A stretch of DNA of 64,000 bases, taken from an uncultured Anaerolineales bacterium. Its GTDB lineage: Bacteria; Planctomycetota; Phycisphaerae; FEN-1346. The translations under genes and the position numbers were made by a program. The stretch spans positions 1,939 through 65,938 of the forward strand of contig CAYGZE010000001.1 in the NCBI GenBank assembly GCA_964354185.1, in the 5' to 3' direction. The first letter of the stretch is position 1, and each line of letters opens with the position of its first letter. Below the pieces are notes generated by a model. It was not told the origin of the DNA. It worked only from the letters and a program-made list of their open reading frames with translations, and made no database searches. This document shows positions 2,371 through 50,000 of this stretch, piece after piece.

Positions 2371-2417
2371 GCCGCTTGCGACGCGGGGGGGCGGCCGGAC
2401 AGAGGAGGGGCGGCGCC

Positions 2418-5699: not shown

Positions 5700-5799
5700 C
5701 GGCCCCGGCCGCGCGCTTTGAGGTTGCACGCCGCCCGGCCGCGCCGGTATCATACCGCGGCGTCTGTCTTCCATCTATTCACATTCGGCGAGGCAACGT

Positions 5800-20569: not shown

Positions 20570-20606
20570 CTTCGAGTTCCTTTCATCGGCTCGTCCCGGG
20601 CGGCGT

Positions 20607-25005: not shown

Positions 25006-25473
25006 CTATTCGAGGGCGGCAGCGGGTGACGGCGCTGCCTTTCGTGCGAAGGCGAGGTGGGCCTGCTCGTCGAACTCGCTCTGCTCGCGTTTGGCCACCT
25101 GCCGCAGGTAGTCTTCCCGTGCCTGTTCGCGCATGCGCTCGAGCGTCTCGCGCATGGACCGCGTCTGGAGGAATCGCTTCCGCTTGCGGGCTCGCTCGGC
25201 CTCGAGTTCGGCGAGGCGGGCGTCGAGGCGCCTCAGTTCGCGCTGCTCGCCGGCCGAGTAGGCCATGACGACCGCCTGCTCGGCGAGGCGGTCGGCCAGG
25301 GGGTGGCGGCCCACCTCCTCCAGGAGGATCCGCAGGGCCGTCCGGCGCTCGACAATCGCCCGGCGGACGCGGACGACGGCCTGGGCCAGGGCGAACAGTT
25401 CGCTCCTCAGGGCCTTCTCGCGCTGGGCGGTGATGTCCAGCACCCGCTCGAGTTTCCACCGGAACTTTTTCAT
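25006..25473 (-). CDS. fliJ: flagellar export protein FliJ
   Basis: 155-aa coiled coil beginning MKKFRWKLERVLDI (the FliJ signature F-R-[FW]-K-L-E-x-[VL]-L). Its start overlaps the fliI stop. Confidence 0.7.
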   Translation of the reverse strand: MKKFRWKLERVLDITAQREKALRSELFALAQAVVRVRRAIVERRTALRILLEEVGRHPLADRLAEQAVVMAYSAGEQRELRRLDARLAELEAERARKRKRFLQTRSMRETLERMREQAREDYLRQVAKREQSEFDEQAHLAFARKAAPSPAAALE

Positions 25474-35791: not shown

Positions 35792-35807
35792 TGCAAGGGG
35801 CGTGCCA
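35792..35807 (-). promoter_or_regulatory. sigma-54 (RpoN) promoter of the flagellar superoperon
   Basis: Minus-strand reads TGGCAC-gcccc-TTGCA, an exact match to the -24/-12 consensus, ~135 nt upstream of the 33335-35656 gene start. An adjacent inverted repeat GCGCAC-ccct-GTGCGC lies at 35766-35781. Confidence 0.6.
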
Positions 35808-36003: not shown

Positions 36004-37449
36004 TTATGAGCCGGCTTCGTGGAAGTGCGGGATCCGCTCGCGGGTGCAGGCGGTCACGTCAACGAGGCCCGCCCCCTCCGGGATCTTGATCTTGTACCGC
36101 TTGAGTTTGGCGTGAAGCGTGGCGCGGGTGATGCCCAGGAGGGCGGCCGCCCGCGTCCGCTGCCAACCCGTCTCCTGGAGGGCGCGCGTGATGAAGAGCC
36201 GCTCGGCTGCCTCGAGCGAGAACTCGTCCTGTAGCAGACGGGCGCCGCTCTCCTCGGACGGCAGCAGGGCCTCGTCCTCGATCAGCAGGTCTTCGGGGCC
36301 GATCTCGTCGCTGCGGGCGAGGATCAGGGCCCGCTCGACGACGTTGCGCAGTTCCCGGACGTTCCCCGGCCACGCGTGCCGCGCCAGGCGCTCGCGGGCG
36401 GCCTCGGTCAGGCGGAGCGCTCGCCCGCGGCACGAAGGGGCAACGACTTCGATGAAGTACTCCACGAGCAGCGGGATGTCCTCGCGGCGCTCCGGCGTGC
36501 GAAGCGGGGGAAGGGTGATCGGGAACACGGCCAGGCGGTAGTACAGGTCCTGTCGGAAACGGCCCTCCCGTGCCGCGCCACGCAGGTCGCGGTTGCTCGA
36601 CGCGATGATGGTGGCCCGACACGGGATGCTCTCGGTGCCCCCGACCTTGCGGAACCGTCGCTCCTGGAGGACGCGCAGCAGTTTCGCCTGGAGTTCCGGC
36701 GGCATCTCGCTGATCTCGTCGAGGAAGAGCGTGCCAGACCCCGCCACCTCGAACAGCCCCTTCTTCTCGCCGTCGGCACCTGTGAAGGCCCCCTTCACGT
36801 AGCCGAACAACTCGCTCTCCAGCAGGTTGGCGGTCAGCGTGGCGCAGTTGACCGCCACGAACGTGTCGGGGTGCTCGCGGCGGAGGGTGTGGACCGCGCG
36901 GGCGGCCAGTTCCTTGCCGGTTCCGGTCTCGCCGACGATCAGGACGGGGTTGCAGGGGCTCTCGGCCACCCGTCGGATCGTCTCGAGGGTCCGCCGCATC
37001 CCCTCGCTCCGCCCGACCATCGGAACGCCCCGAGGGCAGGCCGGCTCGAAGAAGCGGTCCCACCGGGCCCGGATGTCAGCGGTTGCCGCCAGTGCCTGAA
37101 TCCGCTCCAGGCCGACCTTGTCGAGCGGCACCCTCAGACACGCGCTGGCCCCCTCGCGCAGGAAGAGCGCCTCCCGCCTGGCGTCCTGGTCACCCGAGAG
37201 GACCACCACGGGCACCCCCGGGGCTACCTCGCGTACCCTCTCGAGGGCAACCAGCCCCTCGGCTGTCTCGATGGTGTCGCCGATGACTACCAGGTCGGTG
37301 GTCCCCTCCGCGGCCGCCCGAGCGGCCTCGGCCGCCGTGCCGGCCGGGACGCGCGTGCCGCCCAAGTGCCGCAACGGGCAGGAGTCGGCGGCAGGCGCCG
37401 CTCCCAGGACGACAATGCTCCCAAGCCTTACCGGCGAACGTCCCCCCAT
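36004..37449 (-). CDS. sigma-54-dependent transcriptional activator with an atypical receiver-like N-domain (FleQ/FlrA-like candidate master regulator)
   Basis: Start MGGRSPVRLGSIVVLG at 37449. AAA+ sigma-54 activator motifs (IVGETGTGKELAARAVH, GAFTGA, ESELFGYVKGAFTG, GTLFLDEI, RFRQDLYYRLAVFPITLPPLRTPERREDIP). C-terminal HTH (RTRAAALLGITRATLHAKLKRYKI). The N-domain lacks the canonical acidic pocket. Confidence 0.85.
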   Translation of the reverse strand: MGGRSPVRLGSIVVLGAAPAADSCPLRHLGGTRVPAGTAAEAARAAAEGTTDLVVIGDTIETAEGLVALERVREVAPGVPVVVLSGDQDARREALFLREGASACLRVPLDKVGLERIQALAATADIRARWDRFFEPACPRGVPMVGRSEGMRRTLETIRRVAESPCNPVLIVGETGTGKELAARAVHTLRREHPDTFVAVNCATLTANLLESELFGYVKGAFTGADGEKKGLFEVAGSGTLFLDEISEMPPELQAKLLRVLQERRFRKVGGTESIPCRATIIASSNRDLRGAAREGRFRQDLYYRLAVFPITLPPLRTPERREDIPLLVEYFIEVVAPSCRGRALRLTEAARERLARHAWPGNVRELRNVVERALILARSDEIGPEDLLIEDEALLPSEESGARLLQDEFSLEAAERLFITRALQETGWQRTRAAALLGITRATLHAKLKRYKIKIPEGAGLVDVTACTRERIPHFHEAGS

Positions 37450-37962
37450 GAAAGCCGCTCCCTTTCCAGGATGTGCACGTCTCGTCCGTGCCTTGCCGAG
37501 TCCTCGGGTTGGAGGTGTCGCGAGCCTGTCCGCCCACGTATGGCGTGTCCGGTGACTGTCAGCGATGTATCGGCTCTGGACCTCATACGCAGCCACTGGC
37601 GGTCCGGAAGTGTTGATTTACACGCGTTCTCGGCCTGACCGGGTGTGCATCTTTAGAAGAACTTATCGGACGGTCAATAAAAGTGGGGGCAGGCCGCCGA
37701 GGCAACCGGCCGCGCGCCGCCTGGTGGCGCTGGCGCCACCAATCCGGGTGCGGGTGCGACAGCCTCAACCGGCGGGCGGGACCGAGCCGGTGCGGCACCG
37801 GTCGGCCCCCGGTGCGGAGGATTCTACCGATCGTCGGAGGTTTCTTCCGCTTGGCCGGGCGGGCCGACGGGCGAGACGCCGTGGCTGACGCTGAGATGCG
37901 CCGCCCGTAAGTCCTTTAAAAGCAAGGAGATAAGCCACACTGCGTCTTCCATTGGGCAGGGG

Positions 37963-37978
37963 TGGCACGGTTCTTGCT
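37963..37978 (+). promoter_or_regulatory. sigma-54 promoter of the fliK-flgDE...flgKL operon
   Basis: Plus-strand TGGCAC-ggttc-TTGCT exactly matches TGGCAC-N5-TTGCW, ~38 nt upstream of the fliK GTG start (RBS TGAGGAGG). The AT-rich motif CCGTAAGTCCTTTAAAAGCAAGGAG lies 30-60 nt further upstream, a plausible IHF or activator site. Confidence 0.6.
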
Positions 37979-38015: not shown

Positions 38016-39632
38016 GTGCAGGGCATTGCGGCCATGACGGCGACGGTGGGCATCCCGGCGGTGGAGTATCGCGCCCAGTGGATGGATGGCCGCGGGCCGC
38101 CCTCGTCCCCACCGAGCAGACCCGCCGAGAGCGCCCAGGGCTGGGCCCGTCGCGATCCTCTGGACTCGCCCGCCCCCGAAACGACCCAGGCGGCGACAAA
38201 GAAAGTGGGCCGCGACGGCCAAGGTGCCGACAGCGGTGCCCCTGAGTCGGCGGATCCGGCCAACCACGGCTCGGAGTCGGACCCGGGCGAAGCCGACACA
38301 GAACGGCAGGATGCGCCGGCCCGACCGCGGGACGCGCGGATGATGCTGGCCGCAATGTTGACGGCCGAGGCGGCACCGGGCGCGGCGACGCCCACGGCTG
38401 TTGCGGTTGCCTCAGTCGTCGCGAACACGGCCGACGGACTCCGGATGGCCCATGGCGCGGGCAGGGGGGACCCCGCCCCGAAGGCCGTGCCCCAAGCGGT
38501 TGTATCGGAGGCGGTGGGGGGGCCCCAAGCCGTTGGGTCCGAGGCAACGGCCCAGCCGCCTGCCGCAGCCGTGGCGGCGCGCGTCCTCGGCCGCACTTCC
38601 GCAGGGCCGGGGACGGCTGACGCGAAGGCCGGCCCTGCGGCACCAGTAGGGGAGGCGATGGCCGCGAGCCAGGCCGGGGGTGATCGCGGCACCGCGTCTT
38701 CCGCGTCCCTGGCCGCTGCCGTGACCGCACCGAAGGCGTCCGGGCAAGACGCGGCTTCGTCGCGTCTGACGACGGCGGACGGTGGCGCGGCGGCCGTGGT
38801 TGCTCTCCAGGGGACCGCGGTGCCGGCTGCCATGACCCTGGTGCCCGGCCCGCGCGGCACGAAGACGGCGACCGACGGCTCGGAGTCGCGCGAAACCGCT
38901 CCAGGGAAGGGCGAGTCGGCAAAGCCCGTCCTCGACCCGGGCGGGCGAACGCCCCTGGCGGCCCGGATCGAGGAAGGGGTCGACCGGGCGGGGCCCTCCG
39001 TCGTGACCGGCACGGACGCGCTGAAAGGGGCCACTGTCGAGGCGAGCCACGGCGGCGCTGAGGCGGCCCCGGCGGCGGCCACGGCGGTTGGCGCGTCGCC
39101 AGCGGGCAGCGCCCCGGCGGCCGAGCCCCAGGCCCCGGTCGGCGGGCCTGCCGCCCAGACCGCCCAGACGCCCGGCGGAGGGCCGTCGGCGTCCCTCACG
39201 GAGCAACTGGCCGCGCCCGTCCGCTGGATGGCCGTCCGCGACGGGGAGCACGTGACCGTTCGCCTCCAGCCCCCGGAACTGGGCAAGGTCCGGATCACGT
39301 TTCGGAGCGAGGGGCAGGAGGTCCGGGGGATCCTGGAGGTCGAGAACGCCTCCACGCTGGCCCGACTGGGGCGCGAGATGCCGGCGCTGGCCCAGCGTCT
39401 CCAGGATGTGGGGGTACAGGTGCGGCGTCTGGAAGTCGCCCTCGACGGCTCCCACGACGGCCAGGCGTCGCCGTTCGGTCCGTACGACGACCGTGGCGGC
39501 GGGTTCTTCGGCGCGGGCGGGCCGGACGTGCCGTTCGCCGGGGACCTGGCCGCCGACGGCGAGCCGGTCGGCGCCGGCCTCGCCGGGCCGGGCGAATGGG
39601 TGGCGGACGCGGCGATCAACGTTCAGGCATAG
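38016..39632 (+). CDS. fliK: flagellar hook-length control protein FliK
   Basis: 538 aa; low-complexity Ala/Pro/Gly-rich ruler region followed by the conserved C-terminal Flg_hook domain (VRLQPPELGKVRITFRSEGQEVRGILEVENASTLARLGREMPALAQRLQDVGVQVRRLEV). Confidence 0.72.
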   Translation: MQGIAAMTATVGIPAVEYRAQWMDGRGPPSSPPSRPAESAQGWARRDPLDSPAPETTQAATKKVGRDGQGADSGAPESADPANHGSESDPGEADTERQDAPARPRDARMMLAAMLTAEAAPGAATPTAVAVASVVANTADGLRMAHGAGRGDPAPKAVPQAVVSEAVGGPQAVGSEATAQPPAAAVAARVLGRTSAGPGTADAKAGPAAPVGEAMAASQAGGDRGTASSASLAAAVTAPKASGQDAASSRLTTADGGAAAVVALQGTAVPAAMTLVPGPRGTKTATDGSESRETAPGKGESAKPVLDPGGRTPLAARIEEGVDRAGPSVVTGTDALKGATVEASHGGAEAAPAAATAVGASPAGSAPAAEPQAPVGGPAAQTAQTPGGGPSASLTEQLAAPVRWMAVRDGEHVTVRLQPPELGKVRITFRSEGQEVRGILEVENASTLARLGREMPALAQRLQDVGVQVRRLEVALDGSHDGQASPFGPYDDRGGGFFGAGGPDVPFAGDLAADGEPVGAGLAGPGEWVADAAINVQA

Positions 39633-39641
39633 GAGCATCCG

Positions 39642-40007
39642 ATGGCCACGGCGGTGCAGAGTGCCGGCGAACTGAAACTCGATTACCTGAACCTGCTGGT
39701 GACGCAGATGCGCTACCAGAACCCGCTCGAGCCGATGGACAGCGCCCAGATGACGGCGCAACTGGCGCAGATCTCGCAACTGGAGCAACTCGAAAACGCG
39801 AACCGAACGTTCGCCAAGGTCCTATCAGCCGCCGAGGGCGACTACGCCGCCGGACTCCTGGGCAAGCAAGTGGCGTTCGTTCCGGAGGGCGAGACCCAGG
39901 CGGTCATCGGCCCCGTCTCGGGCGTCGAGCGGGTGGGGACGGACCTGCTGCTGCGCGTCGGCAACTACACCGTCGCGCTCGGGGATATCCAGGCCATTGC
40001 GGACTGA
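39642..40007 (+). CDS. flgD: flagellar hook assembly/capping protein FlgD
   Basis: 121 aa; DYLNLLVTQMRYQNPLEPMDSAQMTAQLAQISQLEQLE is the FlgD N-terminal signature. Confidence 0.82.
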   Translation: MATAVQSAGELKLDYLNLLVTQMRYQNPLEPMDSAQMTAQLAQISQLEQLENANRTFAKVLSAAEGDYAAGLLGKQVAFVPEGETQAVIGPVSGVERVGTDLLLRVGNYTVALGDIQAIAD

Positions 40008-40042
40008 GCGGGTCCGGGAACCCGCGCTAGAGGAGACCGACG

Positions 40043-41683
40043 ATGAGCAATGCGTTGATATCCGGCGTGACGGGCCTTCGCGTGCACCAGACCATGCTCG
40101 ATGTCGCCGGCAACAACCTGGCGAACGTCAACACCTACGGCTACAAGGGAAGCCGGGTGACCTTCGCCGAACTCCTGTCCCAGACGATCCGGGAAGCCAC
40201 GCAGCCCGGCTCGGGGACGGGCGGCACCAACCCCCAGCAGATCGGCAGCGGCGTGGCTGTGGCCAGCATCGACCGCGACGTCGGCCAGGGGAACATGGCG
40301 AGCACCGGACAGGCCCTGGACATGGCCGTCGACGGCGCCGGCTACTTCGTCATGAACGACGGCGAGCAAGACGTCTACACCCGCGTCGGCCACTTCTCCG
40401 TCGACGCCGAGTACCACCTCGTCGACTCCGGCGCCGGCTACCGCGTCCAGCGCATCGGCAACGAGGGGGTGGCCGAGGGCTTCCAGGACGCCACCTCTGA
40501 CAACATCCGAATCCCGTACGACGTGGCCCTGCCCGCCAGCGCCACCCGGGGCGTCACCTTCGCGGGCAACCTGAGCGCCGATGCCGTCGAGCCCACGGCC
40601 AACCTGCTCACGAGCGGCGTCCAATACACCGAGGTGGGCGCCGTGGCGTCCCGCACGTCGCTCCTGGCGAACCTGGACCAGGCCAGCGGCCTGGCGGCGG
40701 GCGAGACGATCCGCATCTACGGCACCGACCGCGCCGGCAACGCGGTCGACGAGACGTTCACCCTGGCGGCGGGTTCCACCCTCGGCGACCTGGTCGACGC
40801 CATCTCCGGTTACTTCGACGGCTCGACGGCGTCGCTCTCAAACGGTGAGATCCGGCTGACCGATGACGCAGCCGGCTACAGCCGCTCCGACCTCTACCTC
40901 GCCTACTCCGGCGCCGGCGCGCTGGAACTGCCGGCCTACTTCAGGGTGCTGTCGGCCGGCGGCCAGGAGGCCAAGAACAGCAACGTCGAGGTTTATGACT
41001 CCCTGGGCATCAGCCACGTCATGAGCGTCGCCTTCGTGCGGACCGACCAGCCGAACACCTGGGATATGGTCGTCACGGGCATGACGGGCGACGTCGTGCT
41101 CGACGACCGGCGGGTGACGGGCCTGACGTTCGGCCGGGACGGCAGTTTCGGCGGGCTGGGCGGCGCGACGCCCGACGAACCCTCCGTGACGGTCCGGTTT
41201 GGCGGGGCGTCCGGCGACGTGAGCACCATCGGGATGACCTTCGGCTCGATCGGCGAGTTCGACGGTCTGAGCCAGTTCGGCGGCGCCTCGACCGCCGCCG
41301 CCAGCGGACAGGACGGCTACGAGGCCGGGTACCTGTCGAGCCTCTCCGTGAGCCGCGACGGCACCCTCGTCGGCATGTTCACCAACGGCGTCCGCCGCGA
41401 CGTCGCCGCCCTGAAGATCGCGACCTTCCAGAACCCCGCGGGCCTGACCGACATCGGGCACGGCTACCTCTCCGCGTCGGCCAACTCCGGCAACCCCGTC
41501 TCCACCAAGGCGCTGGCCGGCGGGGCGGGCTCGGTGACCGGCGGGTCGCTGGAGTTGTCCAACGTCGACGTCGCCCAGGAGTTCGTCAACCTCATCCAGG
41601 CCCAGAACGGGTTCCAGGCCAACGCGCGGACGATCCGCGTGACGAACGAGATGCTTCAGGAACTGTCGAACCTGATCCGGTAA
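40043..41683 (+). CDS. flgE: flagellar hook protein FlgE
   Basis: 546 aa; N-terminal MSNALISGVTGLRVHQTMLDVAGNNLANVNTYGYKGSRVTF and C-terminal GGSLELSNVDVAQEFVNLIQAQNGFQANARTIRVTNEMLQELSNLIR. Confidence 0.92.
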   Translation: MSNALISGVTGLRVHQTMLDVAGNNLANVNTYGYKGSRVTFAELLSQTIREATQPGSGTGGTNPQQIGSGVAVASIDRDVGQGNMASTGQALDMAVDGAGYFVMNDGEQDVYTRVGHFSVDAEYHLVDSGAGYRVQRIGNEGVAEGFQDATSDNIRIPYDVALPASATRGVTFAGNLSADAVEPTANLLTSGVQYTEVGAVASRTSLLANLDQASGLAAGETIRIYGTDRAGNAVDETFTLAAGSTLGDLVDAISGYFDGSTASLSNGEIRLTDDAAGYSRSDLYLAYSGAGALELPAYFRVLSAGGQEAKNSNVEVYDSLGISHVMSVAFVRTDQPNTWDMVVTGMTGDVVLDDRRVTGLTFGRDGSFGGLGGATPDEPSVTVRFGGASGDVSTIGMTFGSIGEFDGLSQFGGASTAAASGQDGYEAGYLSSLSVSRDGTLVGMFTNGVRRDVAALKIATFQNPAGLTDIGHGYLSASANSGNPVSTKALAGGAGSVTGGSLELSNVDVAQEFVNLIQAQNGFQANARTIRVTNEMLQELSNLIR

Positions 41684-41701
41684 CGAGAGGCGGCCTCTGC
41701 C

Positions 41702-42829
41702 ATGTGCTTCGGTGCGCTGGGTGCCGTGCTTCTGGCCGAACTGACGCCGGCGGACCGGTTGCGTGCCGCCGGCCGCTTGCCCTTCTTCTCGCTGGAATGG
41801 CGCTTCGTGCTGCCGGTGCTTGGCGCCGTTGTCGTGGGCGTCGTCCTGATTGCCGTCTATCGCTACTACAGCGCGCGCCGGGAGGTGTTGCGGCGCTTCG
41901 CCGCGCACCTGGACCACCTCGGCCTGACGCGGGGCGAGCGGGCCGTGCTGGAGCGGATCGCCGCCCTGTCCGGCGCCGGCGACCCCGGCGCCGCGCTTCT
42001 GGACCGCGCGGCATTCGACCGCGGGGTGCGGAACCTCACGGCCGGCCGTATTGTGGCCCGCCTGACGGAGGACCAGCGGCTCGCGGTGGCGGCCACCGTC
42101 GAGGTCCTGCGCACGAAACTCGACCTTGCCTACCGGGGGGGCGCGGAGTTCCTCGAGGGGACCGGCGGCCTTCAGGTTGCCCGCGGCGATACCGTCACGA
42201 TCGCGCGGCGCGGCGACCTGCCTTCCGTGGAGGCCAAGGTGGCCCGCCTGGAGGGGCGCGACCTGTCCCTGGAACTCAGCGGCGAGAGCGCGCTCCAGGC
42301 CGGCGAACCGTGCCTCGTGCGGTTCGTGCGGCAGGACATCCAGTGGGAACTCAGCGCGTCGGTCGCGATCGCGGCCAAGGGGATGGCGATCGTGCGGCTC
42401 GTCGGGGAGCAGCGGTGCGTGAACCTGAGGCGGTTCGCGCGCGTGCCCGTCCGCAAGCCGGCGCTCCTGGCCCGCTTCCCCTTCGACAAGGCCGAGGCCC
42501 AGGCCGAGGCGCCCGAGTTCATAGGCGGCGCGCTGACCGAGATCGCCGGCCCCGGCCTGCGCATCGACGCGCCCGTCGCCCCCCAGGTCGGCGAGCGGGT
42601 CCTGGTCCTCCTGAGGATGGACGAGGACACGACCATCCAGGGCGTCGGCAAGGTCCGGCGTCTCGTGCACGGCGAGGGCGAGACGCCTGTCATCATCGTC
42701 GAGATGGTGGGCCTGTCGCCGGACGAGGTGGGCAGGCTGGTGCGGGAGACCCGAGCGGCCGCCCGCCCGCCCGTCGATCACGATGCGGAACCCGTGGCCG
42801 CCGTGGCCCATTCGGCGGAGGCACCATGA
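41702..42829 (+). CDS. membrane-anchored PilZ-domain protein (YcgR/FlgZ-like candidate c-di-GMP effector) embedded in the rod/hook operon
   Basis: 375 aa; N-terminal TM segments (LGAVLLAELT..., FVLPVLGAVVVGVVLIAVY). Two beta-barrel-like halves. The second carries an RxxxR motif (NLRRFARVPVRKP) and a downstream GxxxxxG element (ALTEIAGPGLRID), as in PilZ c-di-GMP-binding sites. Its stop overlaps the flgF start (ATGA). Confidence 0.55.
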   Translation: MCFGALGAVLLAELTPADRLRAAGRLPFFSLEWRFVLPVLGAVVVGVVLIAVYRYYSARREVLRRFAAHLDHLGLTRGERAVLERIAALSGAGDPGAALLDRAAFDRGVRNLTAGRIVARLTEDQRLAVAATVEVLRTKLDLAYRGGAEFLEGTGGLQVARGDTVTIARRGDLPSVEAKVARLEGRDLSLELSGESALQAGEPCLVRFVRQDIQWELSASVAIAAKGMAIVRLVGEQRCVNLRRFARVPVRKPALLARFPFDKAEAQAEAPEFIGGALTEIAGPGLRIDAPVAPQVGERVLVLLRMDEDTTIQGVGKVRRLVHGEGETPVIIVEMVGLSPDEVGRLVRETRAAARPPVDHDAEPVAAVAHSAEAP

Positions 42830-43530
42830 GCCTGAACGTGGCTGCCACTCTCGAAGGCCTGACCGACCAGTACCAGGCCATCGCCAACAACCTGGCGAAC
42901 ACCTCCACGGTGGGGTTCAAGCGCCGCCTGACCGTGATGACCGACGCCGGAGCGGCGTCGCCTTCGCCCGACGGGCCGAGCCCGGCGGCCATGTTCATCG
43001 ACTTCAGCCAGGGCCGCCTGGTCCAGACCGGGCGGCCGCTGGACGTGGCCCTGTCGGGGCGGGGGTTCCTGGTTCTGGAATCCGCGGACGGCCCGCTGTA
43101 CACGCGAAACGGGGTGCTGCGGCCCAACGCGCAGGGGCAACTGGTCGACGCCGAGGGACGGACCGTGTCCGGCGAAAGCGGCCCGATCATCCTTCCGTCC
43201 GTCGCCGGCGAGTCCGGGGTTCGCATCTCGAGCGACGGCCAGGTCGCCGTGAACGGCGCCCTGATCGGCACGCTCCAGATCGTCGAGTTCGAGGACACCA
43301 CGAAACTCGAAGCCGTCGGGCTGAATGCCTACAAGGCCCCGGCGAACGTGGCCGGCGACAAGGCCACGAAGACCACCCTCGAGCAGGGATACCAGGAAGC
43401 CTCGAACGTCAGCCCGGTCTACGAACTGGTCGGGCTGATCAAACTCTGCCGCCTGTACGAGGCCAACATCAAGGCCTTGCAGGCCGGCGGCGACCGCGAG
43501 AAGAGCATCCTTCAGGTAGCCATGGCGTAA
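42826..43530 (+). CDS. flgF: flagellar basal-body rod protein FlgF
   Basis: 234 aa; MSLNVAATLEGLTDQYQAIANNLANTSTVGFKRR... and C-terminal LEQGYQEASNVSPVYELVGLIKLCRLYEANIKALQAGGD. Confidence 0.8.
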   Translation: MSLNVAATLEGLTDQYQAIANNLANTSTVGFKRRLTVMTDAGAASPSPDGPSPAAMFIDFSQGRLVQTGRPLDVALSGRGFLVLESADGPLYTRNGVLRPNAQGQLVDAEGRTVSGESGPIILPSVAGESGVRISSDGQVAVNGALIGTLQIVEFEDTTKLEAVGLNAYKAPANVAGDKATKTTLEQGYQEASNVSPVYELVGLIKLCRLYEANIKALQAGGDREKSILQVAMA

Positions 43531-43548
43531 CGCGTTAGGAGGACGTCC

Positions 43549-44337
43549 ATGCTGCGAGCATTCTCGACGGCCGCGACGGGCATGACCGCTCAACAGATGA
43601 TTGTCGACACGATCGCCAACAACCTGGCCAACATCAACACGGCCGGGTTCAAGCGGAGCATGGTCGACTTCCAGGACCTCGTCTACGTCAAACTCAACGA
43701 GGCCGGCCGCGAGGTCGCCTCGGGCGTGGCGGCCCCGACGGGCTTCGAACTGGGCAGCGGCGTCCGCCCCGCCTCCACGCTGAAGGTCTTCACCCAGGGC
43801 GAACTCGAAAACACCGGACGCGAACTCGACGTTTCCATCCAGGGCGACGGCTTCTTCGTCGTTAAGACTCCCAGCGGCGACCAGCGGTATACCCGCGACG
43901 GCTCCTTCCGCATCAACGCCAACGGGAACCTCGTGACGTCGAGCGGCTACGACCTGGAGCCCAGCATCAGCATTCCGCCCGACGCCCGCTCGATCAGCAT
44001 CGGGACGGATGGCACCGTCACGGTCTTCAGCGGGTCGGACGGCACGTCTTCGGCCGCCGGCCAGATCACCCTCGTGCGGTTCCCCAACTCGTCGGGCCTG
44101 TCGGCCGAGGGCGGCAACCTCCTGGCCGAGACCCCTGCCAGCGGGGCGGCCATCGCCGGGACCGCCAGCGAGAGCGGCTTCGGATCCATCCAGGCCGGCT
44201 TCCTCGAACGCTCGAACGTCCAGATGGTCAGCGAACTCGTGAACCTCATCACCGCCCAGCGGGCCTACGAGATCAACTCGCGGGCCATCCGCGCCGGCGA
44301 CGAGATGCTTACGACCGTCAACGGCCTGATCCGTTAG
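43549..44337 (+). CDS. flgG: flagellar distal rod protein FlgG
   Basis: 262 aa; MLRAFSTAATGMTAQQMIVDTIANNLANINTAGFKRS... and C-terminal GFLERSNVQMVSELVNLITAQRAYEINSRAIRAGDEMLTTVNGLIR. Confidence 0.92.
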   Translation: MLRAFSTAATGMTAQQMIVDTIANNLANINTAGFKRSMVDFQDLVYVKLNEAGREVASGVAAPTGFELGSGVRPASTLKVFTQGELENTGRELDVSIQGDGFFVVKTPSGDQRYTRDGSFRINANGNLVTSSGYDLEPSISIPPDARSISIGTDGTVTVFSGSDGTSSAAGQITLVRFPNSSGLSAEGGNLLAETPASGAAIAGTASESGFGSIQAGFLERSNVQMVSELVNLITAQRAYEINSRAIRAGDEMLTTVNGLIR

Positions 44338-44345
44338 GAGGCGCC

Positions 44346-45335
44346 ATGAAGGCCCTGAGATGGATCCTGGCGGCGGCGGCCGTCTTGCTGGCGGCCCCGG
44401 CGGCGGCCGCGGACGACGCCTTGCCGCGCCTGCGAGTCCACCTGCCGCGAACCGTCACGGTTGAGGCCGACGCCCTCCGCCTCGGCATGATCTCGGTCAT
44501 CTGTGCCGAGGACGAGGCCCTCGAGCGCCTGGCCACCGACTTGCCCATGGGCCGCTCGCCCTGGGACCGCGAGGAACTCGTCATCGACCGGCCGACCGTC
44601 CTGGGGCGCCTGGCCAGCCAGGGCCTCAAGGGCGACTGCGTGGAACTCACCGGCGCCGACCGCGTTGTGATCACCCGCCGCCACGCCGCCGTCGGGGCCG
44701 AGGACCTCGTCCGCACCGCCAAGGCGTTCCTCGAGGAGCAGAGCCCCGCGCCGAAGGGGTGCGCGTGGCGGCTCCTGCGGGAACCCGAGGCCCTCGCGGT
44801 GCCCGCCGGCGGGAAGGCGGACCTCGTGCCGCGACGCCTGCCCCGCGCCGTCGACGGCGAGGCCTGCATCGAAGTGGCTGCCGCCGTCGAGGGCCGCCAG
44901 ATTGGCACCGTGCAACTCGTCTTCCGCCTCCGCCATTCGCACTACCGCCTGGTCGCGGTCGCCGACGTGCCGGTGGGGAACCCCGTCACGCCCGAGAACA
45001 CCGAGATACAGACGGTCCTGAAGGACCAGCCACAGCCGGCCACCTGGGCGCCGCCCTACGGCCAGGTGGCGCTGCGGCCCATCCGGGCCGGCGAGGCCGT
45101 CGATCCGAACCTGGTGCGGCCGAGCCAGCCCAAACTGCTCGTCCGCCGCAACGACAACGTCGTCATGCGCCTCACGGGCGAGTTGTTCCAGGTGACCGAC
45201 ATCGGCCAGGCGCAAGAGAACGGGTACCAGGGCGAACTGATCCGGGTCCGCAACGTCGGCTCCGGGCGGATCGTCATCGCCCGCGTCATGGCCGACGGGG
45301 CCGTCGAACCTGCCTTTGCTGGAGCCCAACCATGA
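44346..45335 (+). CDS. flgA: flagellar P-ring formation chaperone FlgA
   Basis: 329 aa; signal peptide MKALRWILAAAAVLLAAPAAAA, SAF-like domain and C-terminal FlgA motif (RLTGELFQVTDIGQAQENGYQGELIRVRNVGSGRIVIARV). Confidence 0.78.
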   Translation: MKALRWILAAAAVLLAAPAAAADDALPRLRVHLPRTVTVEADALRLGMISVICAEDEALERLATDLPMGRSPWDREELVIDRPTVLGRLASQGLKGDCVELTGADRVVITRRHAAVGAEDLVRTAKAFLEEQSPAPKGCAWRLLREPEALAVPAGGKADLVPRRLPRAVDGEACIEVAAAVEGRQIGTVQLVFRLRHSHYRLVAVADVPVGNPVTPENTEIQTVLKDQPQPATWAPPYGQVALRPIRAGEAVDPNLVRPSQPKLLVRRNDNVVMRLTGELFQVTDIGQAQENGYQGELIRVRNVGSGRIVIARVMADGAVEPAFAGAQP

Positions 45336-45985
45336 GACACGCCGCCGCTTGGGTCGTCGCCGTCACGCTGGGGCTCGCGGGGACCGCGGACGCCCGGGCC
45401 GGGTCCATCTGGGCCAAGGCCGAGGGCCTCAACGGCGCCCGCGCCGTCCAACTCTACCAGGACGACACCGCGCGCAACGTCGGCGACATCCTCACCATCA
45501 TCATTGACGAACAGAGCACCGTCGAGAACGACACCAAGCGCAAGGGCGAGAAGGACTCGACGCGGAGCATCACGGCGGCCGGCACCGTCCAGACGAACGA
45601 CGTCGGCCAGTGGTGGAGCCACCGCAACACCCAGTTCACCCTCCCCACCATCAACGCGACCTCCAACGCCTCCAGCGACTTCGAGGGCAAGCACGAATAC
45701 GAGTCGGACCGCCGCATCGCCGACCAGATCACCGTGACCGTCCAGGACGTGCTGCCGAACGGCTGCCTGGTCGTGCTGGGCACGCGGCAGCGGACGACCG
45801 ACGGCGACACGCAGACGATCCAGGTCAGCGGGATCGTCCGTCCCAGCGACATCACGTTCGCCAACACGGTCCCGAGCGGCCGCGTCGCCGACTTCCGCAT
45901 GGCGCTCGCGATCAAGGGCCACGAGAGCCGCTGGACCACGCCCGGCTGGCTCGGGCGGATCCTCAACTGGCTTAGTCTGTGGTGA
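45332..45985 (+). CDS. flgH: flagellar L-ring protein FlgH (apparently non-lipidated)
   Basis: 217 aa; ATGA overlap with flgA. FlgH core (VGDILTIIIDEQSTVENDTKRKGEKDS...ITVTVQDVLPNGCLVVLGTRQRTTDGDTQTIQVSGIVRPSDI). The signal peptide MRHAAAWVVAVTLGLAGTADARA has no lipobox Cys. Confidence 0.85.
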   Translation: MRHAAAWVVAVTLGLAGTADARAGSIWAKAEGLNGARAVQLYQDDTARNVGDILTIIIDEQSTVENDTKRKGEKDSTRSITAAGTVQTNDVGQWWSHRNTQFTLPTINATSNASSDFEGKHEYESDRRIADQITVTVQDVLPNGCLVVLGTRQRTTDGDTQTIQVSGIVRPSDITFANTVPSGRVADFRMALAIKGHESRWTTPGWLGRILNWLSLW

Positions 45986-46035
45986 CGGGCCCGCCTGACG
46001 GCGGGCGGGTCGTGGGGTTCCTTGGAGGGCGCAGG

Positions 46036-47127
46036 ATGCTTCGCGGGCTCGTGATCGCAGGCGTGCTTGCGGCGGCCGCGACGGTCGCCCAGGCCGAGCG
46101 GATCAAGGACATCGCCGTTCATCAGGGGGTGCGCAGCAACCCGCTCCAGGGCTACGGCCTGGTGGTGGGTCTGCGAGGGACGGGCGACAACTCGCCGCTG
46201 ACGCAGCGGGCGCTCGCGAGCCTCCTGAGGCGCGACGAGAACCTGGCTATCGACCCCGCGAGCCTGGAGAGCGACAACATCGCCAGCGTCGTCGTCCGTG
46301 CGGAACTGCCGCCGTTCGCCCGCGCGGGCCAGAAGATCGACGTCGAGGTCTCCGCCATCGGCGGGGCGCAAAGCCTCCAGGGCGGCACGCTCCTGATGAC
46401 GCCCCTGCGCGGGGCCGACAAGCAGGTCTACGCCGTCGCCCACGGGGCCCTCATCATCGGAGGCTTCTCCGCCGCCGGCGAGAAGAGCAGCATCTCTCAG
46501 AACCACGTGACCGTCGGCCGCATCCCCCAGGGCGCGAACGTCGAACGCGAGGAGATCGCCGAACTCGTCCAGGCCGGCGCCGTCACCCTCAACCTGCTGA
46601 ACCCCGACTTCACCACCGCCGAGGCCGTCCGGACCGCCATCAACGCCGTCTTCCCCGGGGCTGCCGAGGCCGTCGACGCCGGCACCGTTCGCGTCTCCAT
46701 CCCCATCCAGATGCCGCGCAACGAACTCGTCTCTTTCCTGGACCGCATCGACACGCTCAAGGTCGAGGTGGACTCCCCGGCCGTCGTCGTCATCAATGAG
46801 CGGACCGGCACCGTCATCGTCGGCGAGAACGTTGCGATCTCGACGGTCGGCATCTCGCACGGCAACCTCTCGATCATCACCCAGGAGAAGGAGGCCGTCT
46901 CCCAGCCCCTGCCGTTCTCGCGGACCGGCACCTCCGAGCGCATCCAGCAGACCGACCTCACCGCCATCGAACAGGCCGGCGTCCTGAACGTCGTGCCGCA
47001 CAGAGTCTCCGTCCAGGAACTCGCCCGGGCCCTGAACGCCATGGGCCTGACGCCCCGGGACCTGATCTCGATCTTCGAGGCCCTTCGGCGCGAAGGCGCC
47101 CTCCAGGCCCGGATCGAGGTGATGTAG
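46036..47127 (+). CDS. flgI: flagellar P-ring protein FlgI
   Basis: Start MLRGLVIAG with RBS GGAGGG. Signal peptide, then RIKDIAVHQGVRSNPLQGYGLVVGLRGTGD, LLMTPLRGADKQVYAVAHGALIIGG, and C-terminal RVSVQELARALNAMGLTPRDLISIFEALRREGALQARIEVM. Confidence 0.92.
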   Translation: MLRGLVIAGVLAAAATVAQAERIKDIAVHQGVRSNPLQGYGLVVGLRGTGDNSPLTQRALASLLRRDENLAIDPASLESDNIASVVVRAELPPFARAGQKIDVEVSAIGGAQSLQGGTLLMTPLRGADKQVYAVAHGALIIGGFSAAGEKSSISQNHVTVGRIPQGANVEREEIAELVQAGAVTLNLLNPDFTTAEAVRTAINAVFPGAAEAVDAGTVRVSIPIQMPRNELVSFLDRIDTLKVEVDSPAVVVINERTGTVIVGENVAISTVGISHGNLSIITQEKEAVSQPLPFSRTGTSERIQQTDLTAIEQAGVLNVVPHRVSVQELARALNAMGLTPRDLISIFEALRREGALQARIEVM

Positions 47128-47136
47128 GAGCCGCCC

Positions 47137-47496
47137 ATGAGCGACGTCTCCCTGACTGCCGACGCCGGGGTCGCGAGCCTGCCGCTCGAAAACAGCGCGG
47201 CCGTGCAGCGCCTCCTGCAAGGGGAAGGGCGCGACACGGCCAAGGTTCTCCGGGCCGCACGCGACTTCGAGTCCGTCCTCCTCCATCGCCTCCTGGAGGA
47301 GATGCGCCGGACGATCACGAAGGCCGACCTCCTCGACTCCGGCACCTCGGACCAGATCGAGGGCCTCTTCTGGATGTACCTGGCCCAGCACCTGGCCGAC
47401 CAGGGCGGCATCGGCCTGGGCAAGGCCCTTGCCGAGCAGATGGCACGGACCGCCTCACCCGTTGAGGCGAAGCCCGTCCTGGAGGTGGAGGCATGA
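47137..47496 (+). CDS. flgJ: FlgJ rod-binding (rod-capping) domain protein without a muramidase domain
   Basis: 119 aa; AARDFESVLLHRLLEEMRRT...IEGLFWMYLAQHLADQGGIGLGKALAEQM matches the FlgJ N-terminal Rod_binding domain. The gene ends there, with no glucosaminidase or peptidase domain. Confidence 0.7.
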   Translation: MSDVSLTADAGVASLPLENSAAVQRLLQGEGRDTAKVLRAARDFESVLLHRLLEEMRRTITKADLLDSGTSDQIEGLFWMYLAQHLADQGGIGLGKALAEQMARTASPVEAKPVLEVEA

Positions 47497-48011
47497 CGGC
47501 CGCCCTCTCCGGCCACGAACCGCTCATCGACCAGTGGGTCGCCGCGGTGGACGCCGCCGTCGCGCTCCAGGGGGAGACCGCCGACGACCTGCGGCAGGTC
47601 CCGGCGGCGGTCGCGTCGCGCGACCCTGCGGCGCTGGAGCGCCTTGGCGACCGACTTCGCTGCGCCGACGCGCGGCTGGCGGAGGCGGCGGTCGTGCGCG
47701 ATCGCCTCCGGGCCCGCCTGGCGGCCGCGCTCGGCTGCCCGCCCGCCGACGTGACGCTGCGACGCCTGGCCGCCCGGGCCGACGATGGCCGCGCCGCCGC
47801 GCTTCGCCGCCTGCGCGAGCGCGTGCTGGCCGCCTCCGACGCCCTGCGCGTCCAGCATCTCAGGGCCGCGACGCTTCTGGACGCCTATGCCCGGGCGCAC
47901 CACGCCGTCCTGGTCGGCCTGTTGCGGCAGGGCGGCGACGCACGCACGTACCGGACCGACGGGACGACCCCCTGGTGGACCGAACGAGGCCTTCTGGATG
48001 CGAGGCGGTGA
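47493..48011 (+). CDS. hypothetical helical protein, putative FlgN-like export chaperone for FlgK/FlgL
   Basis: 172 aa, all-helical and Leu/Ala/Arg-rich. ATGA overlap with flgJ, immediately upstream of flgK. Weak FlgN-like pattern (LERLGDRLRCADARLAEAAVVRDRLRARL...LLDAYARAH). Confidence 0.45.
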   Translation: MTAALSGHEPLIDQWVAAVDAAVALQGETADDLRQVPAAVASRDPAALERLGDRLRCADARLAEAAVVRDRLRARLAAALGCPPADVTLRRLAARADDGRAAALRRLRERVLAASDALRVQHLRAATLLDAYARAHHAVLVGLLRQGGDARTYRTDGTTPWWTERGLLDARR

Positions 48012-48014
48012 CGC

Positions 48015-49970
48015 ATGTCGGACCTGACCATCGGGCTCAGCGGTCTGCGGGTCGCCCAGCGGGCGATCGAGATCGTCGGCCAGAACCTCGCCAACGCCGC
48101 CAGCGAGGGCTATCACCGGCAGGAGGCCATCATCTCGCCGCTCCCCGGCACGACGGCGGCTGGCCTCAACGTCGGCAACGGGGCCGAGGTCACGGAGGTC
48201 CGGCGCGTGGTGAACCTGCTCCTGGACCGTGAGATCCAGCGCCAGCGGCCGGAACAGGGCAGCACGGCGCAGGAGTTGACGACCCTCCAGGTCCTCGAGG
48301 CCGTCGTCGGCGACCTCTCGGAGGACGGCCTGTCGGGCGCCATCGACGACTTCTTCGGCGCGCTTCAGGAACTGGCCGCCCAGCCCGACAGCAACGCTCT
48401 GCGCGAACAGGCCGTCTGGGCGGCAGAGAACCTCGCGGCCCGGTTCCGCAGCATCGCTTCCGGCATCGAGAGCCTCACGAAACAGACCGTCGTGGAGGCC
48501 CAGAGCACCGTCGGCGAGATCAACACCCTCCTCGGCCAGATCGCAAGCCTGAACACGCGGATCCGCGAACTCTCTGTTCGCGGCTTCTCGGACGGAAACC
48601 TGATCGACCTCAGGGACAAGGCCGTCTCCCAACTGGCCGACCTCGCCGACGTGACCGTCCAGCAGGGCGCCGACAACACCTGCACCATCCAGATCATGGG
48701 CGTGATGGGCGTCCTTCAAGGCAGCGCCGCCGAGATCGTGGTCGACTACGCCGACGGCCAGGCCCTCGGCGTCTCGGTCAAGGGGGCGGGCACATACGAC
48801 ACCTCGGCTCGTGGCGGCCGCCTGGGAGGCACCCTGGCCCTCAACAACGACCTCCTCCCCACTATCCGCGACGCCGTCGACGCCCTGGCCGGCACCCTCA
48901 TCGACCAGATCAACCGCCTCCACGTCCAGGGCATCGGTGCCGACGGGTCCTTCACCGAACTGTCCGGCCAAAACGTCGGCCCGGGCACGCTCGACGGGTG
49001 GGAGACCCCTGTCTCGGCCGGACAGGTCTTCCTCCGCGTGATCGACACCGCCACCGGCGAGGTGACGCGCCACGCCGTGTCGATCGACCCCGCCACGCAG
49101 ACGATCGACGACGTGGCGGCCCTGTTCAACGCCGTCCCCCACCTGACGGCCTCGGCCCCCGGTGGGGCCCTCCACATCCAGGCCGACGTCGGCTACCGCT
49201 TCGACTTTCTGCCGGCCCTCGCGCCGGCGCCGGCCACCAGTTCCCTCACCGGTTCCGCGCAGCCGACCGTCTCCGGCGTGTACGCGGGGGCCGCGAATGA
49301 GACGTTCACCTGCACGGTGGTCGGCACGGGCAGCGTCGGGGTCACGAGCGGCCTGGCCGTCGAGGTCCGCAACGGGGCAGGGGAGGTCGTCCGGTCCCTG
49401 AACGTCGGACAGGGGTACGCCGCCGCCGACACGATCGAGGTTGCCGACGGCGTCCGCGTTTCGTTCGGCGCGGGGACCCTGAACGACGGCGAACAGTTTA
49501 CGATCGACGCGCTCGCCGACACCGACCCGACGGGCCTCCTGGCGGCCGCCGGGGTCAACACCCTCTTCTCGGGCCGTTCCGCCCTGACGATGCGCGTCGT
49601 GGAGGACGTCCACGAGTCGTCCGGGCGCCTGGCCACGTCCCGCGGCGCCGGCGACGCCGACAACCTGAACGTCCTGCGCATGGCCGACCTGGCCGACCAG
49701 CCCCTCGACGCCGTCGGCGGCGTTACGCCCGGCGACGCCTTCCGGCACGTCGTCTCCACCATCGGCGAGTGGGTGGCCGTGCGGCAGGCGCGGAAGGACG
49801 GTCTGGAGGGCGTCCTCCAGCAACTCCAGAACCAGGTGGACGCCGCGAGCGGCGTGGATGTCAACGAGGAAGCTGCCAGGCTCCTCGTGTTCGAGCGGAT
49901 GTTCCAGGGCATGGCCCGGTACCTGGCCACCCTCGACCGGGCGAGGCAGGCGCTGCTGGAGGTCATCTGA
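48015..49970 (+). CDS. flgK: flagellar hook-associated protein 1 FlgK
   Basis: 651 aa; MSDLTIGLSGLRVAQRAIEIVGQNLANAASEGYHRQEAII... N-terminal rod/hook motif and C-terminal EEAARLLVFERMFQGMARYLATLDRARQALLEV. Confidence 0.88.
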   Translation: MSDLTIGLSGLRVAQRAIEIVGQNLANAASEGYHRQEAIISPLPGTTAAGLNVGNGAEVTEVRRVVNLLLDREIQRQRPEQGSTAQELTTLQVLEAVVGDLSEDGLSGAIDDFFGALQELAAQPDSNALREQAVWAAENLAARFRSIASGIESLTKQTVVEAQSTVGEINTLLGQIASLNTRIRELSVRGFSDGNLIDLRDKAVSQLADLADVTVQQGADNTCTIQIMGVMGVLQGSAAEIVVDYADGQALGVSVKGAGTYDTSARGGRLGGTLALNNDLLPTIRDAVDALAGTLIDQINRLHVQGIGADGSFTELSGQNVGPGTLDGWETPVSAGQVFLRVIDTATGEVTRHAVSIDPATQTIDDVAALFNAVPHLTASAPGGALHIQADVGYRFDFLPALAPAPATSSLTGSAQPTVSGVYAGAANETFTCTVVGTGSVGVTSGLAVEVRNGAGEVVRSLNVGQGYAAADTIEVADGVRVSFGAGTLNDGEQFTIDALADTDPTGLLAAAGVNTLFSGRSALTMRVVEDVHESSGRLATSRGAGDADNLNVLRMADLADQPLDAVGGVTPGDAFRHVVSTIGEWVAVRQARKDGLEGVLQQLQNQVDAASGVDVNEEAARLLVFERMFQGMARYLATLDRARQALLEVI

Positions 49971-50000
49971 GCCGCCGACCCGGCGGACGGAGAACGCGCG

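Follow-up and report, generated by a model that had tools for sequence, protein, structure and literature searches.

What does a gene resembling those of flagellar second-messenger receptors do in the middle of a hook/rod operon? The question is raised by a 64,000-nucleotide stretch of contig CAYGZE010000001.1 (the window, meaning the whole stretch that was analysed), in which a 375-codon open reading frame (ORF) lies between flgE and flgF. A first-pass annotation had described its product as a PilZ-like protein anchored in the membrane, and the placement of this 375-aa ORF at 41702-42829, within the hook/rod operon, was borne out by the ORF reading and by Pfam matches to its neighbours. We find that the gene between flgE and flgF is real and conserved. 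Its predicted fold is that of the YcgR-type receptors for cyclic diguanylate (c-di-GMP), and the function that we rank first, tentatively and at somewhat less than an even chance, is that of a YcgR-type, inner-membrane-anchored, flagellum-dedicated c-di-GMP receptor acting as a motor brake or clutch on MotA or FliG. The gene and its junction with flgF are placed as follows.

41702-42829, + strand: YcgR-like gene with a 375-aa product (N-terminal tail, transmembrane helix, helical domain, xPilZ barrel, PilZ)
42826-42829, + strand: ATGA, the stop/start overlap with flgF (flgF ATG at 42826, TGA of the ORF at 42827-42829)

The ORF begins with ATG, 18 nt beyond the end of flgE, and a Shine-Dalgarno sequence (GAGAGG) lies about 10 nt 5′ of this start. 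GC content at codon positions 1, 2 and 3 is 79, 49 and 91%, against 71% for the window as a whole, and because this pattern matches that of the window's genuine genes we regard the ORF as a real gene. A 657-aa ORF overlaps it on the opposite strand, which could be taken to mean that the gene is spurious; we rejected the opposite-strand ORF in view of the + strand GC pattern and the ∼365 full-length relatives (E <= 1e-30). Overlap of the stop codon with the flgF start, noticed in the first pass, is read directly in the sequence as ATGA, and GGAGG lies 6 nt 5′ of the flgF ATG at 42826. The translational coupling that had been claimed on this basis holds in part: the overlap is present here and at loci L001, L012, L020 and L022, but it is restricted to close relatives, with short gaps at other loci, and beyond the close relatives the gap to flgF is 2-26 nt in most cases.

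To examine the protein itself, we built an AlphaFold2 model on the family alignment (mean predicted local distance difference test score, pLDDT, 73.8; structured parts, 78-88). The model consists of a long helix (residues 33-72) that crosses the membrane, a helical domain extending to residue 139, a disordered linker, two β-barrels (164-240 and 248-336), and a final helix (340-354). The two barrel-like halves described earlier are thus recovered, and the parts of the protein map onto the DNA in this way.

41798-41860, + strand: single predicted transmembrane helix, residues 33-53, predicted N-out/C-in (Kyte-Doolittle 2.75 over 19 residues)
41870-42124, + strand: helical domain, residues ∼57-141 (about 85 residues), an orphan fold between the transmembrane helix and the barrels
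42182-42421, + strand: N-terminal β-barrel, PilZN-like (xPilZ), residues ∼161-240 (AlphaFold2 strands 164-240, Foldseek)
42428-42442, + strand: RxxxR motif, R243-R244-F245-A246-R247, in the inter-barrel linker, preceded by L242 (LRxxxR)
42443-42712, + strand: PilZ β-barrel, residues 248-337 (AlphaFold2, Foldseek, Pfam PF07238 in relatives)
42539-42556, + strand: second motif, E280-I281-A282-G283-P284-G285, counterpart of [D/N]hSxxG
42713-42763, + strand: PilZ C-terminal helix, residues 338-354 (AlphaFold2 helix 340-354), candidate partner-binding surface

The second barrel (strands 248-336) and the helix 340-354 were modelled with pLDDT values of mostly 83-88, and together they make up the six-stranded barrel plus C-terminal helix of a PilZ domain. 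Residues conserved in the C-terminal helix are L338, E342, L346, R348, T350 and N351; those in the N-terminal barrel are G201, W215, E216 and R238. When the model was compared with the PDB using Foldseek, ranks 1-22 were all YcgR-type or PilZ-domain c-di-GMP receptors, led by MotI/DgrA (5vx6, 2.5e-10), PlzD/VCA0042 (2rde, 1.4e-8), YcgR (5y6f, 1.7e-8) and PP4397 (3kyf, 2.3e-8). Below these four came MrkH, PlzA and the PilZ domains of BcsA and Alg44, with two-domain matches down to ∼1e-6. Alignments to the two-domain structures (MotI, PlzD, YcgR, PP4397, MrkH) span 201-216 columns, which indicates that both barrels match YcgR-type receptors. Single PilZ domains were matched with target TM-scores (template modelling scores) of 0.61-0.69 (YcgR 5y6g, Alg44 4rt0, MapZ 5xly, cellulose synthase 4i86).

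Profile evidence points the same way. Conservation, motif and transmembrane-helix counts were taken over 78 diverse family members, and Pfam PilZ (PF07238) matches 47 of them (E <= 0.01; best, 9.6e-12). In five relatives checked singly, scores were 26-34 bits compared to the Pfam cut-off of 22.5, covering profile positions 1-100 of 102, and the profile begins exactly at NRRRFxR. Foldseek ranking and Pfam matches in relatives therefore bear out the PilZ/YcgR-type fold that had been proposed. Could the two barrels belong to some other fold, such as a chymotrypsin-like protease or the FlgA/SAF family? The proteases DegQ, SplA and HtrA do appear in the Foldseek list (E ∼1e-3), but the PilZ/YcgR matches are better by 5-7 orders of magnitude, and no His, Asp or Ser is conserved across the family; we therefore rejected the protease fold. 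FlgA/SAF, which the first pass had named as the finding that would overturn its proposal, was not found: SAF and ChapFlgA models match 0/78. We consider another two-barrel fold, like a spurious ORF, effectively refuted.

Both ligand-site motifs singled out in the first pass, RRFAR (243-247) and EIAGPG (280-285), can be read in the protein, and across the family they vary little or not at all. R243 is found in 78/78 members, R244 in 75/78 and R247 in 77/78, while residue 242 is Arg in 59/78, Leu in 16/78 (the window protein and 15 others) and His in 3/78. The family form, N-[R/L]-R-R-F-x-R-V, corresponds to the canonical RRxxxR; E. coli YcgR has QRRRYFR. Its placement between the two barrels is shared with YcgR, PP4397 and PlzD. 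The canonical second PilZ motif is [D/N]hSxxG, h being hydrophobic, according to Galperin and Chou (bioRxiv 10.1101/814665). What had been called simply a glycine-rich element does prove to be its counterpart, but with Glu in place of Asp/Asn and Ala in place of Ser, so that the beta2-beta3 turn holds a conserved variant of the canonical sequence, not a degenerate site. E280 is present in 76/78 members and G285 in 78/78, position 282 is Ala in 62 and Gly in 16, and the family form E-[I/L]-[A/G]-G-P-G-[L/V/I/M] retains the h residue, the Gly and the hydrophobic residue that follows it. In some lineages the third position is Ser (TE[ILF]SGPG). We aligned this motif by secondary-structure register and these natural Ser variants, without a residue-level alignment to YcgR; the Ser variants and the location where beta2 ends and beta3 starts in the AlphaFold2 model, like that of YDLSLGG in YcgR, confirm the register. 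A change at the first position appears tolerable, since PA2989 has Ser in place of D/N and still binds c-di-GMP (bioRxiv 10.1101/814665). Mutagenesis data on the Ser and Asp of this motif were not found in PMC2170427.

By mean conservation, the RxxxR linker ranks first (3.53 bits per column), followed by the C-terminal helix (2.49), PilZ barrel (2.14), helical domain (1.86) and first barrel (1.71). Given such strong constraint on the linker, a ligand site is the simplest reading, and judged from sequence, binding of c-di-GMP by the protein is plausible but not assured. The same residues bear on a rather improbable alternative, namely that the protein is a c-di-GMP-independent structural or accessory subunit of the motor (e.g. 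stator- or MS-ring-associated), with the transmembrane helix and helical domain as its core. The barrels would then be protein-interaction domains, and the Arg and Gly motifs would be kept for another reason, possibly another ligand. Such a role is favoured by the replacement of the canonical Asp/Asn and Ser by Glu and Ala/Gly in most members, by the orphan fold of the helical domain, by the persistence in the slot of variants lacking barrels or motifs, and by the fact that PilZ-fold domains without c-di-GMP binding are well known (bioRxiv 10.1101/814665). However, RxxxR is normally lost in non-binding PilZ domains (bioRxiv 10.1101/814665), whereas here it lies in the most conserved segment of the protein, with R243, R247 and G285 essentially invariant; the family retains h and the hydrophobic residue following the Gly, like PilZ domains that are able to bind the ligand, and the canonical Ser occurs in some lineages. 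Separately, L010, L016, L025 and many Planctomycetia-like loci (L035, L043, L063) show a feature resembling the YcgR-like beta1-beta2 loop insertions of PMC11800159.

Membrane tethering, as claimed in the first pass, is supported by the transmembrane helix at residues 33-53 and by the charge pattern around it. The claim of two N-terminal transmembrane helices did not hold. Only one strong helix is predicted; the hydrophobic stretch at residues 2-14 reaches a maximum of ∼1.1 (Kyte-Doolittle, 19 residues), too short and weak for a membrane span, and 65/78 relatives have exactly one transmembrane segment. Among the relatives, mean net charge is +3.9 in the 15 residues past the helix, compared to +0.4 ahead of it, and this concentration of positive charge after the helix suggests that the bulk of the protein is cytoplasmic, the side on which a c-di-GMP sensor has to lie. 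A location of the PilZ part on the cytoplasmic side of the membrane is thus a supported prediction.

How widespread is the gene? A word-indexed search returned 18 relatives, and an exhaustive profile search returned 1020 representatives (50% identity clusters). Of these, 365 reached E <= 1e-30, almost all of them full length, at 350-450 aa. A further profile-based homology search, run on a capped set of candidates, added almost none. Scanning genome contigs with the single protein as query gave no match; the scan by which the loci were found used a profile from a subset alignment. Carriers among the genome records are Planctomycetota (Phycisphaerae, Planctomycetia, Sedimentisphaerales, Pirellulales and a Gimesia maris metagenome-assembled genome, MAG), and the nearest relatives of the window are Phycisphaerae MAGs, with 90% identity of FlgG in the case of L012. 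The arrangement flgE-X-flgF, where X is the YcgR-like gene, was seen in 17/17 family-anchored loci with flanks, down to 24% identity. As a control for selection bias, we fetched 80 metagenome loci via FlgG alone. Among Planctomycete-like loci so anchored (FlgG >= 61% identical, extending upstream of flgF), the gene occupies the slot in 47/47, whereas among loci with FlgG <= 57% identical and >= 1200 nt of upstream DNA it does so in 0/13, and flgE abuts flgF in three of these. The family is specific to Planctomycetota, and throughout the phylum the gene always lies between flgE and flgF. Most members are labelled 'hypothetical protein' in public records, and at least one (HUT02237.1) 'PilZ domain-containing protein'. 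Two MAGs labelled 'uncultured Anaerolineales bacterium' (L005, CAYWVR010000003.1; L006, CAZIJC010000017.1) have a flagellar cluster of the Planctomycete type, including the PilZ gene at its usual position, and FlgG proteins 76-80% identical to that of the window; this label is probably a taxonomic mislabel or reflects a mis-binned contig.

The part of the gene that persists most across lineages is the helical domain, which the first-pass annotation had overlooked. It shows the conserved pattern GL..E..L...A...F....F..G...LR.KLGF and was modelled with pLDDT 78-87 within the full protein and 82 on its own. In a Foldseek comparison of the isolated domain with the PDB, the best E value was 4.8, with no similar fold and no retroviral matrix match. 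Our survey of variants covered 52 distinct complete genes from the collected loci, 45 of which keep both motifs. L024 has the transmembrane helix, helical domain and PilZ with motifs intact, and its first barrel is absent; the final Gly of the second motif is gone in L033 and L036, and the motifs are degenerate in L042, L066 and L067. In L032, the product is 155 aa long, with the transmembrane helix and helical domain only, and it ends right past the conserved LRKKLGF. Three more clusters of 154-155 aa were found in independent datasets, and on a 16.6-kb contig (L100) a barrel-less short gene is likewise flanked by flgE on one side and flgF-flgG-flgA-flgH-flgI on the other. Since the short form occurs in independent datasets, and in one case in the same flgE/flgF slot, it is not an artefact.

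Because module-only variants persist, the transmembrane helix plus helical domain is the constant element of the slot, with the YcgR-like part a majority add-on. It is conceivable, if on balance doubtful, that this module is an unrecognised integral component of the basal body (stator, MS ring or export gate), to which a YcgR-type sensor has been fused in most lineages. If so, every motor would have a hard-wired switch that arrests the flagellum, or triggers its shedding, as the swimming daughter settles, and the 155-aa variants would represent the ancestral or minimal form of the basal-body component. As a separate observation, the PilZ gene at L023 (448-810) appears to be cut down to its last 120 residues, despite 450 nt of contig upstream; this truncation is probably a frameshift or assembly error, not a genuine variant.

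Comparison with characterised proteins places the family more precisely. YcgR (5y6f, 5y6g) likewise has PilZN-like and PilZ barrels, an RxxxR linker and a C-terminal helix, is dedicated to the flagellum, aligns over 203 columns in the Foldseek match (E = 1.7e-8), and shares the R-R-R-aromatic-x-R pattern. It differs in being soluble, in its length of 244 aa, in being encoded away from structural operons, and in having DLSLGG instead of EIAGPG; the window protein has ∼150 extra N-terminal residues, a gene inside the hook/rod operon, and no PF07317 signal. The best structural match, MotI/DgrA/YpfA (the Bacillus subtilis clutch, 5vx6; 2.5e-10 over 214 columns of a 209-residue target), is soluble, shares 14% sequence identity with the window protein, and lacks the transmembrane helix and helical module. 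MotI is a two-barrel c-di-GMP receptor and is reported to act on MotA (bioRxiv 10.1101/2020.02.11.943704; PMC10746217). PlzD/VCA0042 of Vibrio (2rde; L135R mutant, 3kyg) has the same two-barrel fold (E = 1.4e-8) and, as the title of 3kyg indicates, Leu directly ahead of RxxxR, like L242 in the window protein; PlzD differs in being soluble and having a canonical second motif. A non-basic residue in this position of PlzD leads to monomeric c-di-GMP binding (bioRxiv 10.1101/2020.02.11.943704). Because Leu, not Arg, likewise precedes RxxxR in the window protein, monomeric binding would be expected for it and for the rest of the Leu-242 subgroup. Any such expectation of stoichiometry is limited to this subgroup, since 59/78 relatives carry Arg at 242.

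FlgZ/PP4397 of Pseudomonas (3kyf; Foldseek E = 2.3e-8) is a YcgR-type protein with a flagellar-operon gene; it differs in being soluble, in its canonical motifs, and in that its gene is not between hook and rod genes. The flgZ gene lies with flgM/flgN. Closest in overall plan are the YcgR-NpzN/TDE1318-type proteins of Spirochaetes, Aquificae and Fibrobacteres, in which an anchor helix is likewise followed by a helical subdomain, xPilZ and PilZ (bioRxiv 10.1101/814665; PMC11800159). The long N-terminal hydrophobic or transmembrane helix of that group is present in the window protein (transmembrane helix 33-53, AlphaFold2 helix 33-72). The pentahelical NpzN domain is said to resemble the Rous sarcoma virus (RSV) matrix protein; the helical domain of the window protein is multi-helix, and no retroviral matrix protein was among its Foldseek matches. 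The NpzN/TDE1318 proteins belong to other phyla, and we found no report for them of a fixed flgE-flgF position or an E-h-A-G-P-G motif. Unnamed YcgR-like proteins with a transmembrane helix and a bundle of 2-5 helices also exist and are missed by the NpzN model (PMC11800159). The first-pass statement that effectors of this kind are as a rule soluble and encoded elsewhere is accordingly outdated: FlgZ is encoded in a flagellar operon and is reported to act on a stator (PMC3913639; bioRxiv 10.1101/2020.02.11.943704), flagellar genes lie near 3433/11,980 YcgR-like loci in a published census (PMC11800159), and transmembrane-anchored homologues are known (PMC11800159; TDE1318). As membrane-anchored YcgR homologues and flagellum-adjacent YcgR genes had already been described, the novelty of the locus had been overstated. 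A PVC-rich (Planctomycetes-Verrucomicrobia-Chlamydiae) PilZ cluster in the supplement of PMC11800159 proved to be Omnitrophota.

How might a YcgR-type brake or clutch work at this location? The ligand would bind at a linker/PilZ site formed by R243, R247 and E280-x-A282-x-x-G285, as a monomer in proteins with Leu-242. Binding would clamp the two barrels together, as it does in YcgR-type proteins, exposing a conserved surface made up of the C-terminal helix and linker. This surface would then engage part of the motor, with the cytoplasmic domain of MotA or FliG as the likeliest target, and rotation would be slowed or disengaged. Meanwhile, the sensor would be kept at the membrane, close to the basal body, by its transmembrane helix and helical module; being made along with the rod and hook, the protein would supply each new motor with its own brake. 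A built-in brake of this kind would suit the switch from a swimming daughter cell to an attached cell. MotA and FliG are inferred as partners, and a brake or clutch acting on them is ranked first, because of the contacts made by YcgR, whose RxxxR region and C-tail helix bind MotA and whose YcgR-N domain binds FliG (PMC10140304). The two-step model now current for YcgR raises the issue of how a tethered protein could follow, or would block, the rotating MotA ring (PMC12713396). Candidate partners are encoded in the window itself.

23569-24339, - strand: motA, stator, candidate partner (Pfam MotA_ExbB, 2.2e-26)
22887-23567, - strand: motB, stator (Pfam MotB_plug, OmpA)
27423-28424, - strand: fliG, rotor, alternative candidate partner (Pfam FliG_N, FliG_M, FliG_C)

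When is the protein made? The gene belongs to a fliK-flgD-flgE-X-flgF cluster headed by a sigma-54 type promoter consensus, with a gene for a sigma-54 activator diverging from it.

36004-37596, - strand: divergent sigma-54 activator, Sigma54_activat plus HTH_8 (Pfam PF00158, 1.9e-63; PF02954)
37963-37978, + strand: sigma-54 type promoter consensus TGGCACGGTTCTTGCT, 38 nt upstream of fliK
38016-39632, + strand: fliK, hook-length control (Pfam Flg_hook, 1.6e-14)
39642-40007, + strand: flgD, short form of 121 aa (Pfam FlgD, 1.4e-18)
40043-41683, + strand: flgE, hook protein (Pfam FlgE_D2, Flg_bbr_C, LlgE_F_G_D1)
42826-43530, + strand: flgF, proximal rod (Pfam LlgE_F_G_D1, Flg_bbr_C)
43549-44337, + strand: flgG, distal rod (Pfam)

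The sequence TGGCACGGTTCTTGCT is a perfect TGGCAC-N5-TTGCW, of which the window holds 2 perfect matches compared to 0.06 expected. No terminator-like sites were found on the + strand between 37.4 and 52.6 kb. An operon without terminators that starts at a perfect sigma-54 promoter supports the co-expression with rod and hook genes put forward in the first pass. The sigma-54 activator gene is equally placed in L001 and L003, and this divergent AAA+ protein (ATPase associated with diverse cellular activities) is the probable regulator of the fliK-led cluster. That second-messenger control is built into the assembly programme, as suggested in the first pass, is for the present an inference. With regard to flgD (39642-40007), the N-terminal FlgD domain alone was detected in the product, with the Tudor-like domain at E = 0.09; a short FlgD is common to relatives (124-128 aa in L001 and L003).

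The timing of expression brings in another candidate role, which we hold to be unlikely, as a c-di-GMP-gated checkpoint of assembly, positioning or ejection (e.g. at the export gate or MS ring). Such a checkpoint would either allow or prevent assembly of the rod and hook, or cause the flagellum to be lost when the cell turns from motile to sessile. The role would resemble that of TipF in Caulobacter, which is membrane-anchored and has a degenerate EAL domain and no PilZ. The likeness is one of role only, TipF being a flagellum-dedicated c-di-GMP effector in a swarmer-to-sessile life cycle and an earlier example of flagellar morphogenesis controlled by c-di-GMP (PMC3792480). Several observations fit a checkpoint. 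The gene lies in the rod/hook operon behind a sigma-54 promoter, close to or overlapping flgF, so that the protein is produced while the flagellum is being assembled; like a core flagellar gene, it occurs in all of the phylum's flagellar clusters that were examined; and the transmembrane helix and helical module survive without the PilZ part, as expected of a structural or assembly role. On the other hand, there is no sequence or fold kinship to TipF, no specific assembly partner is indicated by this analysis, and the characterised flagellar YcgR-type two-barrel proteins all act on the finished motor, on MotA/MotC or FliG/FliM (PMC10140304; bioRxiv 10.1101/2020.02.11.943704).

Several of our results weigh against a YcgR-type brake or clutch. 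The profile check proposed in the first pass, which finds PF07238 in relatives, gave no match for the window protein itself against Pfam and NCBIfam at E <= 1, and the N-terminal models PF07317 (YcgR-N) and PF12945 (PilZNR) match 0/78 members at E <= 0.01. The first barrel is, on the model, PilZN-like by fold only. When solved structures were searched by sequence (with the single protein, a 19-sequence profile and a 30-sequence PilZ-only profile), no PilZ chain was returned, only chance-level matches (a designed repeat, an MCP and NEIL3), and an hhalign comparison of the 78-sequence family with E. coli YcgR was not significant. Because the sequence searches miss PilZ chains, the tie to solved PilZ structures rests on fold comparison and on the Pfam matches in relatives. 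In the second motif, neither of the side chains that contact the ligand is the canonical one (Glu replaces Asp/Asn, and Ala/Gly replaces Ser), and therefore affinity, or even the identity of the ligand, could differ. Some lineages keep the slot without the barrels (L032, L100) or without the motifs (L042, L066, L067), which suggests that part of the function is c-di-GMP-independent. A transmembrane tether is, to our knowledge, needed by no known brake. Finally, E. coli ycgR is expressed late, together with the motor genes; the early, rod/hook co-expression seen here is unlike this and fits a role in assembly as well as it does a brake.

Beyond the gene itself, the window contains nearly the whole flagellar regulon in two clusters. 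That on the - strand (7863-30769) includes flgC, fliE, fliF, fliG, fliI, motA, motB, fliO, fliR, flhB, flhA, a sigma-28-like factor, flagellin and fliD; that on the + strand (38016-51428) runs from fliK through flgL. Among the window ORFs scanned, there was no gene for chemotaxis or for c-di-GMP turnover. The second perfect sigma-54 promoter consensus, TGGCACGCCCCTTGCA (35792-35807, - strand), lies upstream of a gene for a 773-aa tetratricopeptide-repeat (TPR) protein (33335-35656, - strand) that adjoins the sigma-54 activator. A TPR gene occupies the matching position in L001, and the 773-aa protein may be co-regulated with the flagellum. Four ORFs of the - strand cluster have no Pfam match and coding-like GC at the third codon position (GC3): 24343-24996 and 25006-25473, between fliI and motA, and 11407-12054 and 12038-12688, downstream of the sigma-28-like factor. 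They may encode FliJ/FliH-like flagellar proteins or lineage-specific ones. Elsewhere, an 880-aa ORF (57128-59770, + strand) fuses an extracellular solute-binding domain (SBP_bac_1) with a permease domain (BPD_transp_1), an unusual arrangement for an ATP-binding cassette (ABC) importer, and a second, 663-aa permease-like ORF comes after it. Large ORFs (761-1256 aa) without a Pfam match are found at 2442-5774 (- strand) or 1929-5699 (+ strand), the coding strand here being ambiguous by GC3 alone, and at 52782-55067 and 20427-21722 (both + strand).

Our literature search found no description of this Planctomycete family, of the invariant flgE-X-flgF position, of the E-h-[A/G/S]-G-P-G motif or of the module-only variants. 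Control of flagella by c-di-GMP is known mainly from soluble effectors of Proteobacteria and Firmicutes, and how YcgR itself works is still a matter of debate (PMC12713396). A membrane-tethered relative found throughout a phylum and co-expressed with the rod and hook would be a natural experiment on where a brake is located with respect to stator and rotor, and its variant ligand motif, E-h-A-x-x-G, has testable binding properties. Members now labelled 'hypothetical protein' could receive a name. The module-only variants point to a flagellar accessory function that is separable from c-di-GMP sensing, and for the Planctomycetota, which alternate between swimming and attached cells, the family offers a first concrete handle on how motility is shut down.

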